In this document: in pieces, positions 9,251 through 26,194 of the stretch
Layout of the letters: each line of letters begins with the position of its first letter
Numbering within the stretch: the stretch's first letter is position 1
Assembly (NCBI GenBank): GCA_963777165.1
Contig: CAVZPO010000022.1
Location: forward strand, 12,082-76,081
Source: an uncultured Chloroflexia bacterium
Lineage (GTDB): Bacteria; Chloroflexota; Anaerolineae; Anaerolineales; E44-bin32
Direction of reading: 5' to 3'
Length of the DNA: 64,000 bases
Notes under the pieces: generated by a model
The model's database searches: none
Told to the model about the DNA's origin: nothing
What the model saw: only the letters and a program-made list of their open reading frames with translations
Made by a program: the position numbers and the translations under genes

Positions 9251-10903
9251 CTACCAGCCGCTGGCCTTGAACAGCGCCGCCAGGAACTCCGCCCGCTCTT
9301 CGGGCGTCATCGGGCGCGGCTGGGAGAAGTCCTCCAGAAAGGTCGTCAGCAGTTCGGTGCTGATGTGGCGGCCGGCGTAGATCACATGCCGATCGAGGAA
9401 TTCCTGACGGACGGAGGCGTTGGCCATCTGGTCGAAAAACAGATTCCCGAGCCCGTAGTGAATCAGTGCGCCGTTCCAGAACTCGAACGACTGCGGCTGG
9501 TGTGCCTGGCTGCCGCTGACGATTGCTGCCCCGGCATCCGCAGCTGCCCGAAAGTCGACCACCTGTGCCGGCACTGGACTCGGCCGGTAGGACTCGGCCC
9601 ACTGGTAGGTAAACACCACCACGTAACCATCCTGCCGGAGGCGTGCCGCTTCGGTGAACAGCCGATCGAACTCGCACGGCGCCGCACCGGGACGGTCGGC
9701 CGTGGCCCAGGCCGTCGAAGGACCGGCCTGGTTGCATCCCAGAAACGCCACGCGGTTGCCGTTGTGCTCGAAGAGCGCCGGCTGGAGCGAGTCCTCCAGA
9801 TCGGCGCCGCCGCCGAAGTCGAGCCAGCCGCGGGCGCGCTGCTGCTCGAGCGTGTACTGCAGCGCCTCGGCCCCCCAATCCATGACGTGGTTCCCGGTGA
9901 GTTCGACGACGTCCACCCCGATCGACTCCAGCAGCCCGATCTGCTGCGGCTGGCTGCAGAAGCGCAGGCTGGACTGCGCCGGATCGGCCTTGGGACAGGT
10001 CGGGGAGAAGGCGACCTCGTTGCTGACGTGCAGGATATCAGCCTCGCGCAGCCAGTCGCCGATCAACTGCGCCGGGTAGTCGACGCCCTTCTGATCCATC
10101 TTCCAGGCCGTGGCGCGGGTCAGCGCCGTGACGCCGGTCACCATCACGACCGTCAATCGCGCCGGGTCTCGGTTGGTGGCGGGCCAGACAACCGCCGCGC
10201 GCACCGCCTCGACCGCCTGGGGATCGCCGGAGAAGCCGAAGCCTACGCTCAGCGGGTAGCCGGCAGGGTCGAAGGACTTCCACAGCGGGGATTGACCCTC
10301 GAGCGTCAGGACTTTGAGGCGCGGCTCGAGCTCCTCGAAGGGGACGATGGCCAGCGAGCCGGGCTGCTCCCAGGTGCGATCGGCGACATGCTCACTGACT
10401 TCCTCCCACACGGTGTAGCCCGAAGGACCGAGGACGACGCGAGCTGCGGCGGCATCCTCGGGACGAACGACGACGCGTGCCCATTTGCCTTCGGTGCCTC
10501 CCCACAAGGTCCGGAGCTCGCCGAGCGGGATCGAATCGTCCACCGTCGGGAACGGCGCCGCCACGGCGTAGATCCAGAGGGCGAGGGGCGAGTCACTGAC
10601 CGGTTCTGCCCGCACGTCGGCCTCGTCGGGCGCCGCAACGAAGACGACGGCGCGATCACCCACGACCTGCAGCGCCTCCAGCGGCTGGCGCAGCGCCTCA
10701 GGCAGCGCCGGCGACAGCCAGACGCGAATCGGTTCAGGCGTCGGAGGCAGCGGCGGGAGAGGCGTGTCGGTGGGCGAGGCAGCCGTTGGGACCGGCGGGA
10801 TGGCGGACGGATTGCCTGCGAGGGGTAGGTTACATGCGGCCAGGAGTGCGCCGGCGGTTGCGGTGGCGAGCGCCAGGTGAGCGATGCGATGGGTGATGTC
10901 CAC
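9251..10903 (-). CDS. CapA / PGA_cap family metallophosphatase-like lipoprotein with N-terminal extra domain
   Basis: Signal peptide plus lipobox (ALLAAC). The C-terminal half has ADILHVSNE, VDVVELTGNH, VVVFTYQW and GSQAHQPQ, typical of CapA family proteins. Confidence 0.8.
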   Translation of the reverse strand: MDITHRIAHLALATATAGALLAACNLPLAGNPSAIPPVPTAASPTDTPLPPLPPTPEPIRVWLSPALPEALRQPLEALQVVGDRAVVFVAAPDEADVRAEPVSDSPLALWIYAVAAPFPTVDDSIPLGELRTLWGGTEGKWARVVVRPEDAAAARVVLGPSGYTVWEEVSEHVADRTWEQPGSLAIVPFEELEPRLKVLTLEGQSPLWKSFDPAGYPLSVGFGFSGDPQAVEAVRAAVVWPATNRDPARLTVVMVTGVTALTRATAWKMDQKGVDYPAQLIGDWLREADILHVSNEVAFSPTCPKADPAQSSLRFCSQPQQIGLLESIGVDVVELTGNHVMDWGAEALQYTLEQQRARGWLDFGGGADLEDSLQPALFEHNGNRVAFLGCNQAGPSTAWATADRPGAAPCEFDRLFTEAARLRQDGYVVVFTYQWAESYRPSPVPAQVVDFRAAADAGAAIVSGSQAHQPQSFEFWNGALIHYGLGNLFFDQMANASVRQEFLDRHVIYAGRHISTELLTTFLEDFSQPRPMTPEERAEFLAALFKASGW

Positions 10904-10971
10904 GGGGCGGGATTATCCCACACCCCGCCATCCGCCGCGCAGTGCGGCTCGCGGCCGACGGGCGCGCCCGG

Positions 10972-11883
10972 CTATTCCCCGGCCAGGGCCAGGAACACGT
11001 CCTCCAGTGTCGGCTCCACGGCCTCCACCCGAGTGGCGTTTACCCCCGCTGCGGCCAGCGCCGCGGTCAGCACGCCCGCCGTCGTTTCTGCGTCGGTGAT
11101 CGCCCGCAGGTGATCACCGGTCAGACCGGCACGCTCGACCGAAGGAAGCGCCTGCAGGACGCGCAGCGCATCCAGCATCGGCGAGGCGACGACGTCCCAG
11201 GCCAGCCCGGACAACGCCGAGCGCTTGAGCGCCGAGGGCGTATCCATCGCCAGCAGGCGTCCCCGCCGCATGATGCCTACCCGGTTGCAGTACTCGGCTT
11301 CGTCCATGTAGTGCGTGGTGACGAGCGCCGTCACCCCCTGCTCGGCCAGATCGTAGATCAGGTTCCAGAAGGCGCGGCGGGCGATCGGGTCGACGCCGCT
11401 GGTCGGTTCATCCAGCACCAGCAGCGCCGGTTGGTGGACGATGGCCGTGGCGAGCGCCAGCCGCTGGCGCCAGCCGATCGGGAGGTCGCCTGCGCGCAAC
11501 CCGATCATGCCGCCCAGCCCGACGGTTTGGATGGCGCGTTGCACGTGCTCGGCCTCCCCCACCCCGTAGACGCCGGCGTAGAAGGACAAGTTCTCGAGCG
11601 CGGTCAGCTCGTCATACAACGCGAAACGCTGCGACATGTATCCGACGCGCCGGCGGATCTCCTCCGACTGGCGGGTGACATCGAAGCCGAAGACCGATGC
11701 CCGGCCGCCGCTCGGCAGCAACAGTCCGAGCAGCATGCGGATCGTGGTCGTCTTCCCCGAGCCGTTCGGTCCGAGGTAGCCGAGGATCTCGCCCCGCCGA
11801 ATCTCGAAGCTCACGCTGTCGACGGCCGTGAAACCGCCGAAGCGTTTGGAGAGCTCGAAGACTTCAGCCACCGTCTCGGTCAT
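10972..11883 (-). CDS. ABC transporter ATP-binding protein (ABC-2/DrrA type)
   Basis: Walker A GPNGSGKTT, signature/Walker B LLVLDEPTSGVD, C-terminal PTLEDVFL. GAGGGG RBS upstream. Confidence 0.9.
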   Translation of the reverse strand: MTETVAEVFELSKRFGGFTAVDSVSFEIRRGEILGYLGPNGSGKTTTIRMLLGLLLPSGGRASVFGFDVTRQSEEIRRRVGYMSQRFALYDELTALENLSFYAGVYGVGEAEHVQRAIQTVGLGGMIGLRAGDLPIGWRQRLALATAIVHQPALLVLDEPTSGVDPIARRAFWNLIYDLAEQGVTALVTTHYMDEAEYCNRVGIMRRGRLLAMDTPSALKRSALSGLAWDVVASPMLDALRVLQALPSVERAGLTGDHLRAITDAETTAGVLTAALAAAGVNATRVEAVEPTLEDVFLALAGE

Positions 11884-11985
11884 CTACCCCTCGCGCCCCA
11901 CCGGGCGCCTCCCCGGCGAGCACTGCAGCGGACTCTTCCTCCGCCGCATCGACGATCCCTCGGCCGTCCGGATCGGCAGCGGCCC

Positions 11986-12657
11986 TCAGGACAGTGCCCA
12001 GAACTCGCCCGTCAGGCCGAGCGTAGTGAACAGCGCCTGCGCTTCGGATGGTGACCGGCGCCTCCACGCGGGATCGCGCCGGTCTGACGCGTACCACGCC
12101 TGAGCCAGCCCCCAGATCTGCTCCCGGCTCAGGATCCCGCCTCGAGGCTGACGCCAGATCGCCGCCCACCGAGCGATGTGCTCTTCCGACCGGAAGAGGA
12201 GCATCGTCCGTCAGGTGAAGACGACGTCGTCCCACCACGACCGTGCGGGCACGGCAAAGTGCGCCAGGCAGGAATCTCCATCGACACGGCCGTTCCGTAC
12301 GCTGAGTGTCAGTGCTTCGCCGCAATCGGGGCAGGCAGTGGCCACACTCCCGTCGGCACCCAGCATCGCCAGAATCCCAAGCCCATCCCAGATGCAGTTG
12401 CCCCACCACGACCTTCCGGCACTGGAGACGACGAAGGCTGTCGGCACGGCCGAAAACGGGTTGGCCATGAGCACGTCGCCGCTCGCCGGCTGCAGGACGA
12501 GGGCGTGCGCGCCGGCCAACCGTTGCAGCGCCTCCCCCACCTCCAGGTCGCGCCTCCCCAGGCGGCGTGCGATCTCACCGATGGTCAACGCCCGACCGGT
12601 GGTGAGGAAGCCCTCGTAGATTTCGCGCCGCACGTCGAGATCGAGTGCCTCATTCAT
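11986..12657 (-). CDS. MerB-like (alkylmercury lyase family) protein with one in-frame TGA (12211-12213); candidate selenoprotein, or a nonsense pseudogene
   Basis: ORFs 12211..12825 and 11986..12204 share one frame and are separated only by TGA. ATG 12657 has GGAGG upstream. There is an N-terminal winged-helix region. WWGNCIWDGLGILAMLG and ATACPDCGEALTLSV resemble the MerB Cys96/Asp99 block. The TGA falls in VVFT-TGA-RTMLLFRSEEH, which aligns with MerB SFCCHVHFFAS. Confidence 0.7.
12175..12205 (-). promoter_or_regulatory. SECIS-like stem-loop downstream of the in-frame UGA
   Basis: The mRNA reads 5'-GAUG CUC CUCUUCC GGUC GGAAGAG CA CAUC-3'. This gives a 7-bp perfect upper stem, a GGUC tetraloop and a 4-bp lower stem, starting 9 nt from the U of UGA. 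Confidence 0.5.
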
Positions 12658-12718
12658 CCAACGCCTCCGTGCCCTGGCGCCGGCCGCTGTGAAATGGGCG
12701 CCCATTCCAGACAACGGT

Positions 12719-13673
12719 TCAAGCTGGGCCGGCCGGTTCGCTCTCCAGCAGCTCGATGAACACGTCCTCCAACTCGGGCGACACAAGACGCACGTGATCC
12801 ATCTGGATGTCCTCGGCCCGGGCAACGACTTGTCAAGCGCTGCATGACCGGCTCGGCCGCGCCCGGGGCGACGCGCAGGTGCAGCCGGTCTCCGAACAAC
12901 TGCACCGCCTCGACGCCTGCCTCCCCTCGGGCCAGCCGCGCCAGCCTGCGCAGCGCCTGGCCGGCAACCTCGAGGATCCTTCCGTCCAGCCGTCCGGTAA
13001 CCTCCGCCGGTGCGCCCTCCACCAGAAGCCGCCCTCGGCTCATGAACCCCAGTCGATGGCAGCGTGCCGCCTCGTCCATGTACGGGGTGCTCACCAGGAC
13101 GGCGACGCCTTCTCCCAATAACCCGATGATCAATTGCCAGAACCCCTGGCGGGTGACCGGGTCCACGCCTCCGGTCGGCTCGTCGAGGAGCAGGATGCGC
13201 GGCCGATGCACGAGCGCCGCGGCCAGCCCAAGCTTCTGGCGCATTCCGCCCGAAAGCGCCTCTGCCCGGCGGTCGGCAAACTCCGCCAGTCCGACGAACT
13301 CGAGGATCTCGTGCGAACGCGAGCGCCAGGCCTCCCTCGGCAGGCCGCGGACCTCGGCGAAGAACCGCAGGTTCTCTTCAACCGTGAGCTCGCCATACAG
13401 GCTGAAGCGCTGCGGAAGATAGCCGATCTCGGCGCGGGCCCGCAATTCGTCGCGTGCCAGATCGATCCCCGCCAGGTGGACTTGGCCGGCGTCGCAGGCC
13501 AGCGCGCCGCACAGCAGCCGCATCGTCGTCGTCTTGCCTGCGCCGTCCGGCCCGACCAGCCCATAGGCTTCCCCGGCCGCGACGCGCAGGCTGACGTCCT
13601 GCACGGCGAGCGTGGATCCGAAGGCGCGCCGTAAGCCTTCGGCGACGATCAGGGGTTCCTGCTCTGTCGTCAT
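12719..13673 (-). pseudogene. ABC transporter ATP-binding protein, frame broken near 12815-12833
   Basis: Walker A GPDGAGKTT, signature LSGGMRQK, Walker B ILLLDEPTGGVD. The expected C-terminus QVVARAEDIQMDHVRLVSPELEDVFIELLESEPAGPA* sits in another frame and ends at 12719-12721. The start overlaps the HlyD stop (ATGA). Confidence 0.85.
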
Positions 13674-14918
13674 GTTTCGAATGCGACGTCCACCGGCATT
13701 CCCGGCTTGAGCTTGCCCTCGGCTTCTGCCACCGTCACCTCAACGGCGAAGACGGTCGTGCGCCGTCCTTCCTCGGTCTGCACATTGCGTGGGGTGAACT
13801 CCGCACGATCGGAGATACGCGTCACCACGGCATCGAAGCTCTCCTTGGGGAAGGCGTCGGCGGAGATGCTCACGTGGTCGCCGAGATCGATCTGCCCGTA
13901 GCGGTCTTCCGGCAGGAAGACGGTGATCGTCAGGTGGTCGAGCTGCCCGATCGAGAGCGCCTGTGCGCCGGCGAGCAGCACCTCACCCGGCTCGATGCTG
14001 CGCGCCAGGATCACCCCTCCGAGCGGTGCACGCACCAGCAGCTTGCCGAGCTGAAGATCGAGCGTCTCCGCATCGACCTTGGCCTGGGCGCGGGCGGCTG
14101 CCAGCCGCGCCTGCGCCAGCGTCAGGCGCGCCTTGGCCTGGTCCAGCAAGTCCGGGTCCGGCCCGGGGTGCAGGTCCTCGAAATTGCGTTGGGCTTCATC
14201 GAGCTGGGCCTGAGCGAGGCTGACCTTGGCGTCCAGGATGGCCTGATCGATGTCGGATGGCTGGCCCTTGTACCAGTTGAGGCTTGCCTGAGCCGCGTCC
14301 CGCTGCCGTCGAGCGGCCTCGAGCGAGGCGCGCGCAGCGGCACGCGTCGGGTTGTCGGCCGGGAGTGAACCCACCCGGTTATAGGCTGCCTCGGCACGGT
14401 CGAGAGCTTGCTCGGCCAGCGTCAAGGTCGCCTTGGCCCCGTCGAGCGTTTCGGTCGTGGCCCGATTGCCCTTCTGCTGATAGGTGTTCAGCCGCACGGC
14501 ATCGTCGAGCGCGTCGCGGGCATTGGCCAGCGTGAGCTCGGCCTGCGCTGCGGCAAGCACGGCGTCGTCGTTCAGCGCGTCGAGGCCTTGCTGCGCGTTG
14601 AGCAGCTCCAGTTCCGCCGCAGCCACGGCTGCCTGCCCGCCCGCCAGCGCCAACTCGCGCTGCGCCTCGAGCAGCCGGTTGTCCAGGCGCAAGATCACAT
14701 CGCCGGCCTGCACCGATCGCGCCCTCGTCGACCAGGACCGCCTCGACCCGACCAGACACCTCGGAGGCGACGTTGACTTGAACTGCCTCGACCGTGCCCG
14801 ACGCCTGCAGCGGGCCGTTGTCTCGAGCCGAGACGGCCGTCAGGTAGATCAGCCCGGCGACGACCAGGCCGACGAAGACCACGATCGGCGCAACACGTCG
14901 TACCTTGTCCAGGTGCAT
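13670..14918 (-). pseudogene. HlyD-family periplasmic adaptor, frame broken near 14714-14722
   Basis: The N-terminal TM anchor plus SGTVEAVQVNVASEVSGRVEAVLVDEG are in ORF 14379..14918. The continuation SVQAGDVILRLDN, the coiled-coil region and the C-terminus KLKPGMPVDVAFET are in ORF 13670..14713. AAGGAGGG RBS upstream. Confidence 0.85.
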
Positions 14919-14928
14919 CCAGCCCTCC

Positions 14929-16062
14929 TTAGTCGAGCCGCTTGCGAAAGCGCAGGGCGGCTGCGGTCAACATCGCCGCGCCGAAGATCGCCAGAGCGAC
15001 GATCTCGCCGGTCAGCGCGCCGGCTCCCACGCCCTTGAGCAGGATCGACCGAATGATGATCAGGTAATGGCGCAGCGGGATGACGTACGAGACGGCGCGC
15101 AGGAGCGGCGGCATGGCCGCCAGCGGAAAGAAGAAGCCCGAGAGGAAGATCGTCGGCAGCATGGTGAAGTACACCAGCATGATCGCTTCCTGCTGCGTCC
15201 GGGCGATGGTGGAGACGAACAGCCCGACGCCGAGCGAGCCGGCCAGGAACAGCCCGGAGAGCAGCAGCAGCAGCCCGAGGCTGCCGCGGATCGGCACGTC
15301 GAACCACAACGTCCCGATCACCAGGATCTCGAGCGTGTTGAGGAAGGCGATCAACGTGTAGGGGATGATCTTGGCCAGGATCAATTCGACGGACCGGATC
15401 GGCGTGACGATCAGCTGCTCGATCGTCCCACGCTCACGTTCGCGCACGATGGCCGTGGCGGTGAGGAGCGAAGTCAGCAGCTGCAGGATCATCCCGATCA
15501 GCGCCGGGATCATGAAGAAGGCGCTGACCAGATCCGGGTTGTACCAGACTCGGGCGCGCACCTCGACGGCGGGACTGGCGGCGGAGGAGGCGGCGAGGGG
15601 ACCCAGGCGCTCGACGGTCAGCCGAGCCGAGTGTGCCTGGCCGATCAGCGTCGCCGCCGCCAGCGAGGTGGAGGCGACGTTCGGGTCGCTGCCGTCGAGG
15701 ATGAAGGCCACCTCGGCCGTCTTGCCGGCGAGCACGCTGGCCTCGAAATCGGGCGGGATGATCAGCCCGGCACGCGCCTGGCCGTTGTCGATCAGCGTGC
15801 GGAGTTCGTCGGCCGAGGCGACGTCGTAGGCCAGGCGGAAATAGTCCGCCGACCGGTAGGCGTCCAGCAGGCGGCGGGCCGCCGGCCCCCGCGACTGGTC
15901 GAACACGGCCAACGGGACGTTGCGCACATCGGTCGTGGCGGTGTAGCCGAGCAGGAAGATCTGGATAACCGGGATCGCCAGGACGATGTACAACGTCCGC
16001 GGGTCGCGGGCGATCTGGATGAACTCCTTGCGGATCAGGGCCATCATGCGGTGATTGAGCAT
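14929..16062 (-). CDS. ABC-2 type transporter permease (YhhJ/YbhS-like)
   Basis: 377 aa. The N-terminus ALIRKEFIQIARDPRTL is followed by a large periplasmic loop and six C-terminal TM segments. Confidence 0.9.
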   Translation of the reverse strand: MLNHRMMALIRKEFIQIARDPRTLYIVLAIPVIQIFLLGYTATTDVRNVPLAVFDQSRGPAARRLLDAYRSADYFRLAYDVASADELRTLIDNGQARAGLIIPPDFEASVLAGKTAEVAFILDGSDPNVASTSLAAATLIGQAHSARLTVERLGPLAASSAASPAVEVRARVWYNPDLVSAFFMIPALIGMILQLLTSLLTATAIVRERERGTIEQLIVTPIRSVELILAKIIPYTLIAFLNTLEILVIGTLWFDVPIRGSLGLLLLLSGLFLAGSLGVGLFVSTIARTQQEAIMLVYFTMLPTIFLSGFFFPLAAMPPLLRAVSYVIPLRHYLIIIRSILLKGVGAGALTGEIVALAIFGAAMLTAAALRFRKRLD

Positions 16063-26122: not shown

Positions 26123-26194
26123 GGGCCGTTAGCTCAATGGCAGAGCAGGTGCCTTTTAAGCACAAGGTTACAGGTTCAAGTCCTGTACGGCCCA
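26123..26194 (+). tRNA. tRNA-Lys (anticodon UUU)
   Basis: Manual fold. Acceptor GGGCCGT/ACGGCCC. D arm GCTC-AATGGCA-GAGC. Anticodon stem GTGC/GCAC with loop CTTTTAA. Variable loop AGGTT. T arm ACAGG-TTCAAGT-CCTGT. Discriminator A. CCA is not encoded. Confidence 0.9.

Follow-up and report, generated by a model that had tools for sequence, protein, structure and literature searches.

The question raised by this locus is what an in-frame UGA is doing inside a gene of the organomercurial lyase (MerB) family. In this study, we analyzed a stretch of 64,000 nucleotides (nt) from an uncultured Chloroflexia bacterium (GenBank assembly GCA_963777165.1, contig CAVZPO010000022.1), referred to as the window, with a focus on the MerB-like gene at 11986-12657 on its minus strand, to which all coordinates below refer unless another strand is given. 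A first-pass annotation of the window had proposed that the UGA encodes selenocysteine (Sec) at the position of a catalytic Cys and is followed by a selenocysteine insertion sequence (SECIS) of the Escherichia coli fdhF type, making the product a Sec-containing MerB-like enzyme. This proposal was supported by our analyses on three counts, namely a column that holds TGA or Cys throughout the family, a hairpin that covaries, and an independent assembly with the same TGA, and we put the probability that 11986-12657 is a selenoprotein gene at roughly 0.88, judged from sequence comparison. Under this reading, the UGA at codon 150 would be decoded as Sec within a single MerB-family protein of 223 residues, and a SelB-type SECIS hairpin with a 7-bp stem and a GGUC loop, located in the coding sequence 12-36 nt past the UGA, would direct the decoding, as the comparison of orthologues suggests.

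The gene is complete. Its translation runs from an ATG at 12657-12655 through 149 codons, one TGA at 12213-12211, and 73 further codons to a terminal TGA at 11988-11986, comprising 223 codons including Sec150, and a Shine-Dalgarno-like GGAGG (12664-12668) that may serve as its ribosome-binding site lies 6 nt upstream of the ATG. Both the translation and the list of open reading frames (ORFs) agreed with the earlier statement that the ORFs 12211-12825 and 11986-12204 share one frame. When Cys was substituted for the internal stop, the joined product matched the Pfam family MerB (PF03243) with 103.3 bits against a cut-off of 27 bits; the match spanned residues 68-189 and hence ran across the TGA. 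Matches by tblastn in 80 genome loci covered residues 3-222. A profile search of the PDB with the window protein and its homologues returned only MerB2 (5c17, E = 2.5e-18) and MerB (3f2g, 1s6l, and others). In this alignment, WWGNCIWD was placed on YAWCALD of MerB, which holds Cys96 and Asp99, and TACPDCGE was placed on SSHCAATGAP, while the TGA column coincided exactly with Cys159 of MerB and with the "TC" of MerB2 5c17. The Pfam match and the PDB alignment thus bore out the proposed collinearity with organomercurial lyase, Cys96/Asp99 included, and the TGA, which had been set opposite Cys159/Cys160 to within about one residue, could be assigned to Cys159 itself. The codon for Cys88 (12394-12396), equivalent to the catalytic Cys96, was invariant in the homologue alignments, and that for Asp91 (12385-12387), equivalent to the proton donor Asp99, was conserved in at least 90%. 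A CPDC motif with Cys109 and Cys112 (12322-12333) was invariant in the clade and is common to SaoL, a MerB-like selenoprotein discussed below, whereas MerB has the first Cys only (Cys117). The 73 codons that follow the proposed Sec codon (11989-12210) make up the C-terminal third of the MerB fold and align to the C-termini of MerB and MerB2.

First, the TGA at 12211-12213 was a property of the family and not of this contig. A scan of GTDB with one genome per species gave 501 tblastn-confirmed hits, the best 80 loci of which were inspected, and a further 80 loci came from metagenomes scanned with the Cys form P0028 as seed. The column held TGA in 80/80 genome loci and in 78/80 metagenome loci, the remaining two having TGT. 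Among the 158 TGA-form orthologues fetched (the 80 genome loci plus the 78 metagenome loci), which span at least nine phyla, the column had TGA in all 158 and never TAA or TAG. The terminal stops of the same genes were TAG in 79, TGA in 57, and TAA in 22, and therefore the exclusive internal TGA is not a stop-codon preference. Downstream of it, 69-86 conserved codons stayed open in 80 of the 81 in-frame matches at the genome loci, and this frame could be aligned to the query through residue 222. The inspected genome loci belonged to metagenome-assembled genomes (MAGs) labelled Chloroflexota, Acidobacteriota, Actinomycetota (Gaiellales, Thermoleophilia, and others), Gemmatimonadota, Eremiobacterota, Dormibacterota, Planctomycetota, KSB1, and Proteobacteria, and the TGA-form carriers were mostly MAGs from soil and sediment.

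Protein databases displayed the same column from the other side. Approximately 110 of the best 120 protein matches were 136-177 amino acids (aa) long, most of them 147-158, and all seven of the short matches that were aligned ended at ...VVFT directly before the TGA column. Nine matches among the best 120 were of full length, and eight of them had Cys at the column while one (P0008) had Trp. When the best 150 representatives of 50%-identity clusters were considered, 74 ended exactly before the column, 35 spanned it, and 2 consisted of the C-terminal piece alone; 17 of the column-spanning representatives could be placed by motif search, and these had Cys at the column. Of the sequence clusters that could be classified, about two thirds use Sec; Sec forms outnumber Cys forms in the clade. 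The two residues that precede the column across the clade are FT, YT, FN, or HT, with the Sec taken as the next residue. Taken together, the homologues showed Cys or TGA at the position of Sec150, as is to be expected of the Cys/UGA pair at a catalytic Cys that serves as the standard signature for identifying selenoproteins (PMC13188914).

The TGA was also reproduced in an independent short-read assembly of another sample (L001), which was 99.06% identical to the window over 2.7 kb (25 mismatches and 1 gap); the one substitution within the gene, TCA to TCG past the TGA, was synonymous. Reads with TGC or TGT at this codon were one of four outcomes that the first-pass annotation had named as fatal to its proposal, and the independent assembly argues against it; of the three outcomes put to the test, none occurred.

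Three sequences departed from the Cys or TGA pattern. The gene at L083:998-1648, which encodes P0008, has TGG (Trp) in the Sec column and yet a perfect CUCUUCC-GGUC-GGAAGAG hairpin, which points to a sequencing error or to a change from UGA to UGG in the very recent past. At the level of protein sequences, the representatives P0130 and P0139 also had "TW" at the column.

Second, the mRNA beyond the UGA can fold into a SECIS-like stem-loop (12174-12206). Its lower stem, GAUG/CAUC, pairs 12206-12202 with 12178-12174; its upper stem, starting 12 nt past the TGA, pairs CUCUUCC (12198-12192) with GGAAGAG (12187-12181) and is capped by a GGUC apical loop (12191-12188). The 31-nt element had a predicted energy of -12.1 kcal/mol, and the upper hairpin by itself one of -9.8 kcal/mol. 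Stems and loop were those described in the first-pass annotation, and with the U of UGA as nt 1 the loop indeed occupies nt 23-26; the spacing it gave for the lower stem, in contrast, had to be corrected, since this stem begins at nt 9 of the same count, 8 nt after the U and not nine. A published model of bacterial SECIS elements allows a loop of 3-9 nt and a stem of 4-16 bp (PMC13188914 Fig. 2; Zhang and Gladyshev), with a G in the first two loop positions, a spacing of 16-37 nt between UGA and loop, and a minimum free energy of at most -7.5 kcal/mol (PMC13188914). The hairpin of the window, having a 4-nt loop that starts with GG, a 7-bp stem, a spacing of 19 nt, and an energy of -9.8 to -12.1 kcal/mol, falls within all of these bounds.

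The evolution of the hairpin was followed in the Sec forms. Across 80 distinct Sec forms, 97.3% of the cells of the upper stem were paired, although the pairs themselves varied: the loop-closing pair was CG in 66, UA in 8, and AU in 4, and the basal pair was CG in 59, GC in 4, AU in 2, UA in 2, and UG in 3. Changes on both sides were counted in 27 cells; shuffling of the columns gave 9.2 +/- 2.5, and 0 of 500 shuffles attained 27. Pairing fell to 38-52% when the partner was slid by 1-3 nt. Some compensations altered the protein: in one, a change of Arg (CGG) to Trp (UGG) was balanced by a UCG to UCA change at Ser, and in another, Leu (CUC) became Val (GUC) while Glu (GAG) became Asp (GAC). Synonymous choice in the hairpin was nearly frozen among 151 unique Sec forms, with CTC for Leu in 135/135, TTC for Phe in 150/151, and TCG for Ser in 136/148. 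Arg was encoded by CGG in 137/141 inside the hairpin while CGC dominated three other Arg columns of the same genes, and Glu was encoded by GAA in 118/143 while GAG dominated the neighbouring Glu columns. Consistently, the mean third-position divergence was 0.18 in the hairpin codons versus 0.55 in the flanking downstream codons.

If the hairpin were a coincidence of the encoded peptide, Cys forms with the same peptide should have it as well, and they do not. The Cys forms that share the FRS(E/D) peptide are a small sample of four distinct sequences, and the 7-bp stem and GGUC loop were lost in all four, which use other codons. One Cys form (L082, CTTMNLFRSEEH) has the codons CTG TTT CGC TCC GAG GAG, two others (L107 and L110) have CTC TTT CGA TCT GAG GCC, and the fourth (L172, CSTMLLFRSDEH) retains a weak remnant, a 3+4-bp hairpin with a GCUC loop. 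In the more divergent Cys forms, nothing comparable to the hairpin was found. Judging from these alignments, the hairpin is maintained by selection as RNA and is specific to the UGA forms.

Several observations weigh against the reading of this gene as a SECIS-dependent enzyme with MerB-like chemistry, and they concern the hairpin, the machinery, and the function. The fold of 76 nt computed on the window sequence alone was not better than that of shuffled sequences (z = -1.06); because this single fold is unexceptional, the case for a hairpin beyond chance rests on the comparison given above. The E. coli fdhF SECIS has its GGUC apical loop at nt 22-25. The hairpin of the window is similar in lying in the coding sequence directly 3' of the UGA, but its upper stem consists of 7 perfect bp with no bulged U, and its loop, at nt 23-26, is 1 nt further from the UGA. 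Searches by tblastn with E. coli SelA, SelB, and SelD revealed no selA, selB, or selD in the 64-kb window or in approximately 0.95 Mb of locus flanks, the one match being to a GTPase in L092 taken up at the end, and no tRNA-Sec was detected in the window by ARAGORN and Rfam, nor in the loci L002-L061. On the functional side, the window protein missed the NCBIfam cut-offs for MerB equivalogs by a wide distance (32.8 vs 193 for NF009710 and 25.9 vs 200 for NF033555), MerB chemistry has nothing that corresponds to its invariant CxxC pair, and clustering of the flanking ORFs at the 80 genome loci yielded no recurrent neighbour, mer genes included. The recurrent groups in that clustering were the MerB-like gene itself and spurious antisense ORFs. 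From the gene itself, we infer that Sec machinery is present in this organism.

The first-pass annotation had left open whether a Sec-containing member of the MerB family was already known. One is: SaoL (NF040728), a MerB-like selenoprotein described in 2022, which carries a C-U dipeptide and is encoded by anaerobes in the nine-gene SAO locus (Haft and Gwadz, bioRxiv 10.1101/2022.07.06.499078; J Bacteriol 2023). The gene of the window belongs to a different clade. The two resemble each other in that both fall in PF03243 and share Sec in the column of MerB Cys159, each carries a CxxC motif further upstream (SSCIECGE in SaoL, TACPDCGE in the window protein), and both are routinely cut at the UGA in databases. 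In contrast, the window protein was only 27% identical to SaoL over 129 residues (WP_238493467.1), it scored 31 bits with NF040728 against a cut-off of 140 bits, with a match that covered residues 9-125 only, its clade has T-U or N-U where SaoL has C-U, and the nine-gene SAO neighbourhood is absent around it. The carriers differ too, those of SaoL being anaerobic Firmicutes, spirochaetes, and deltaproteobacteria, and those of the present clade being soil and sediment MAGs. An assignment to SaoL was rejected on score, motif, and context.

An assignment to classical MerB was rejected on the same three grounds. Compared with MerB and MerB2 (EC 4.99.1.2; PDB 3F0P, 3F0O, and 5C17), the clade has the same fold, as shown on a model of its Cys homologue P0028, and keeps the positions of Cys96, Asp99, and Cys159, with Sec in the last; the window protein differs in having Sec for Cys159, no Cys160, and an additional CxxC. 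Its gene is flanked by genes for ATP-binding cassette (ABC) ATPases, HlyD, an ABC-2 permease, and PGA_cap, and not by a mer operon (merR, merT, merP, merA). The closest counterparts without Sec are the Cys forms of Actinomycetota annotated as "alkylmercury lyase family protein" (for example, P0085 of Kocuria flava) and their relatives P0028, P0039, and P0078, which belong to the same clade and share its architecture, with 41-47% identity over the full length. These have Cys in the Sec column, encoded by TGC or TGT where the Sec forms have TGA, and they lack the SECIS stem and GGUC loop even where the FRS(E/D) peptide is kept.

What the protein does is less certain than that it contains Sec. 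P0028 is 45-47% identical to the window protein, and its AlphaFold2 model (mean predicted local distance difference test score 96.6) matched only MerB2 (5c17, template modeling scores 0.68/0.73) and MerB in the PDB at E < 1e-3. Placed on this fold, Sec150 would sit at the position of MerB Cys159, next to Cys88 (Cys96) and Asp91 (Asp99). If MerB is taken as the guide, the enzyme would most probably carry out protonolysis of a carbon-metal bond. The soft metal of an organometallic compound, for which organomercurials are the prototype, would be coordinated by the thiolate and the selenolate, and the leaving carbon would receive its proton from Asp91; a selenolate would offer a more nucleophilic and softer ligand of lower pKa. 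We give organometal lyase activity about an even chance on this analogy, and mercury in particular as the substrate would be a poorer bet than that.

The alternative that survives best accepts the selenoprotein and questions the lyase. According to it, Cys88, Cys109, Cys112, and Sec150 would together make up a site for metal or metalloid binding or for redox chemistry, and the protein would be, for example, a sensor, a chaperone, or a thiol/selenol oxidoreductase built on the MerB fold with an N-terminal winged-helix-like domain. The CxxC that is invariant both in the clade and in SaoL is absent from MerB, and together with Cys88 and Sec150 it could provide a four-ligand site. Weak matches to GntR and HTH_20 at residues 8-60, together with the secondary Foldseek matches of the P0028 model (MntR, DtxR, and LexA), point in the same direction, as do the scores far under the MerB equivalog cut-offs and the finding that no neighbour, whether a mer gene or another, is conserved at the 80 genome loci. 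Moreover, it has been argued that SaoL need not act on mercury (Haft and Gwadz, 10.1101/2022.07.06.499078). On the other hand, the complete catalytic triad of MerB, the Asp proton donor among it, is conserved, and MerB and MerB2 were the only significant structural matches. We regard a non-lyase role as unlikely, yet as a hypothesis to be taken seriously.

It could also be asked whether a standard amino acid (Trp, Cys, or Gly) is inserted at the UGA, in a reassigned code or by near-cognate decoding that the hairpin stimulates, with no Sec involved. The TGG variant with an intact hairpin would fit such a reading, as would the missing Sec machinery in the window and the approximately 0.95 Mb of flanks. 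UGA is not reassigned here, however, because TGA also terminates this very gene (11986-11988), as it does 57 of the orthologues. None of the carrier phyla, of which there are at least nine, is among the lineages known to reassign UGA. In addition, the hairpin fits the SelB-type model and not a generic read-through signal, and the Cys/UGA pair at the catalytic Cys is the accepted mark of a selenoprotein (PMC13188914). Readthrough with a standard amino acid is consequently very improbable.

Another possibility is that the stop is genuine and the gene naturally split, so that a 149-residue protein and a separately initiated 70-residue protein assemble, the second being started by termination-reinitiation at a conserved ATG two codons (6 nt) past the stop. 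The Met codon three codons past the Sec codon (12202-12204) was conserved in 147/151 Sec forms. Gene callers either omit the C-terminal third or emit it as a separate ORF of 69-72 aa (for example, L170:6457-6675, P0246, and P0257), and it is because of this conserved Met that the separate C-terminal "gene" arises. The hairpin could in principle modulate such a coupling. But the Cys forms with FRS(E/D) have the Met at +3 too, which marks it as a feature of the protein, and a stop would remove precisely the residue that occupies the catalytic-Cys column of the full-length homologues. The exclusive use of TGA (158/158) in genes that end with TAG, TGA, or TAA, and a hairpin whose loop sequence and spacing are those of SelB-binding SECIS elements, likewise argue against a natural split, which we consider most improbable. 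Finally, there is a negligible chance that a nonsense mutation or an assembly error produced the TGA and that the gene is a pseudogene in this organism. Although one indel or more does disrupt an adjacent gene in this assembly (a 1-nt insertion near 12829 when compared with L001), the same TGA stands in the 99.06%-identical independent assembly and in 158/158 TGA-form orthologues with an open and conserved downstream frame.

With Sec150 retained as the preferred reading, the clade appears to be undescribed within the literature that could be searched. Prokaryotic selenoproteome reviews of 2022 and 2026 and the deep-Sep reference set held only the SaoL type under MerB, in a coverage of the literature that is incomplete, and the text of BSepDB made no mention of MerB. 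We lean slightly toward the clade being truly unreported. With a similarly modest degree of confidence, we propose that it represents a second Sec-dependent MerB-like clade that has not been described before, far more widespread than SaoL, with a near-universal SECIS, and located outside mer and SAO loci.

If this is true, public annotation systematically truncates a common selenoenzyme of soil bacteria. The Sec-form database entries examined stopped at residue 136-177 or were labelled "hypothetical protein" or "organomercurial lyase," and because entries stop at the UGA, the catalytic Sec and the C-terminal third would be missing from databases and from surveys of mercury cycling based on merB. 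The substrate may then be an organometal or organometalloid compound other than the classical targets of the mer operon. The use of Sec in organometal chemistry would be extended from SAO, which is restricted to anaerobes, to Chloroflexota, Acidobacteriota, Actinomycetota, Gemmatimonadota, and Eremiobacterota. Besides, a SECIS that is almost invariant over approximately 50% protein divergence would offer a clean natural case of overlapping constraints from RNA structure and protein, and could be used as a search motif, and the Sec/Cys pair at the MerB metal site would allow a direct test of what selenium contributes to carbon-metal cleavage.

As to the surroundings of the gene, it lies in 9251-16062 (-) between the two ATPase genes of an operon in the order ABC-2 permease, HlyD, ATPase, ATPase, and a PGA_cap gene then follows this exporter operon, a context limited to the window and the loci L001, L170, and L171. 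Both ATPase genes matched Pfam ABC_tran and are lineage-specific context: the upstream one occupies 12720-13673 (-), and the downstream one occupies 10972-11883 (-), with the same order in L001, L170, and L171. The upstream gene is frameshifted at its 3' end near 12829. At 12825-12834 (-), the sequence of the window (GACAAGTCGT) is one base longer than that of L001 (GACA-CTCGT). The additional base shifts the last approximately 35 codons of the ATPase and leaves its proper C-terminus (...PELEDVFIELLESEPAGPA*) in another frame; this is an indel of the assembly or else a pseudogene specific to the strain. This 1-nt insertion was the single case checked of the statement in the first-pass annotation that all other gene disruptions in the window are indels, and for this case the statement held. 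A weak SelB match adjoining a Sec-form orthologue (L092:59-355, minus strand) fell on the N-terminus of a translational GTPase and was rejected as SelB, its motif LNLGILAHVDAGKTTLTE being that of a TetM/EF-G-like GTPase. The only RNA gene that ARAGORN and Rfam reported in the window was a tRNA-Lys (UUU) at 26123-26194 (+).

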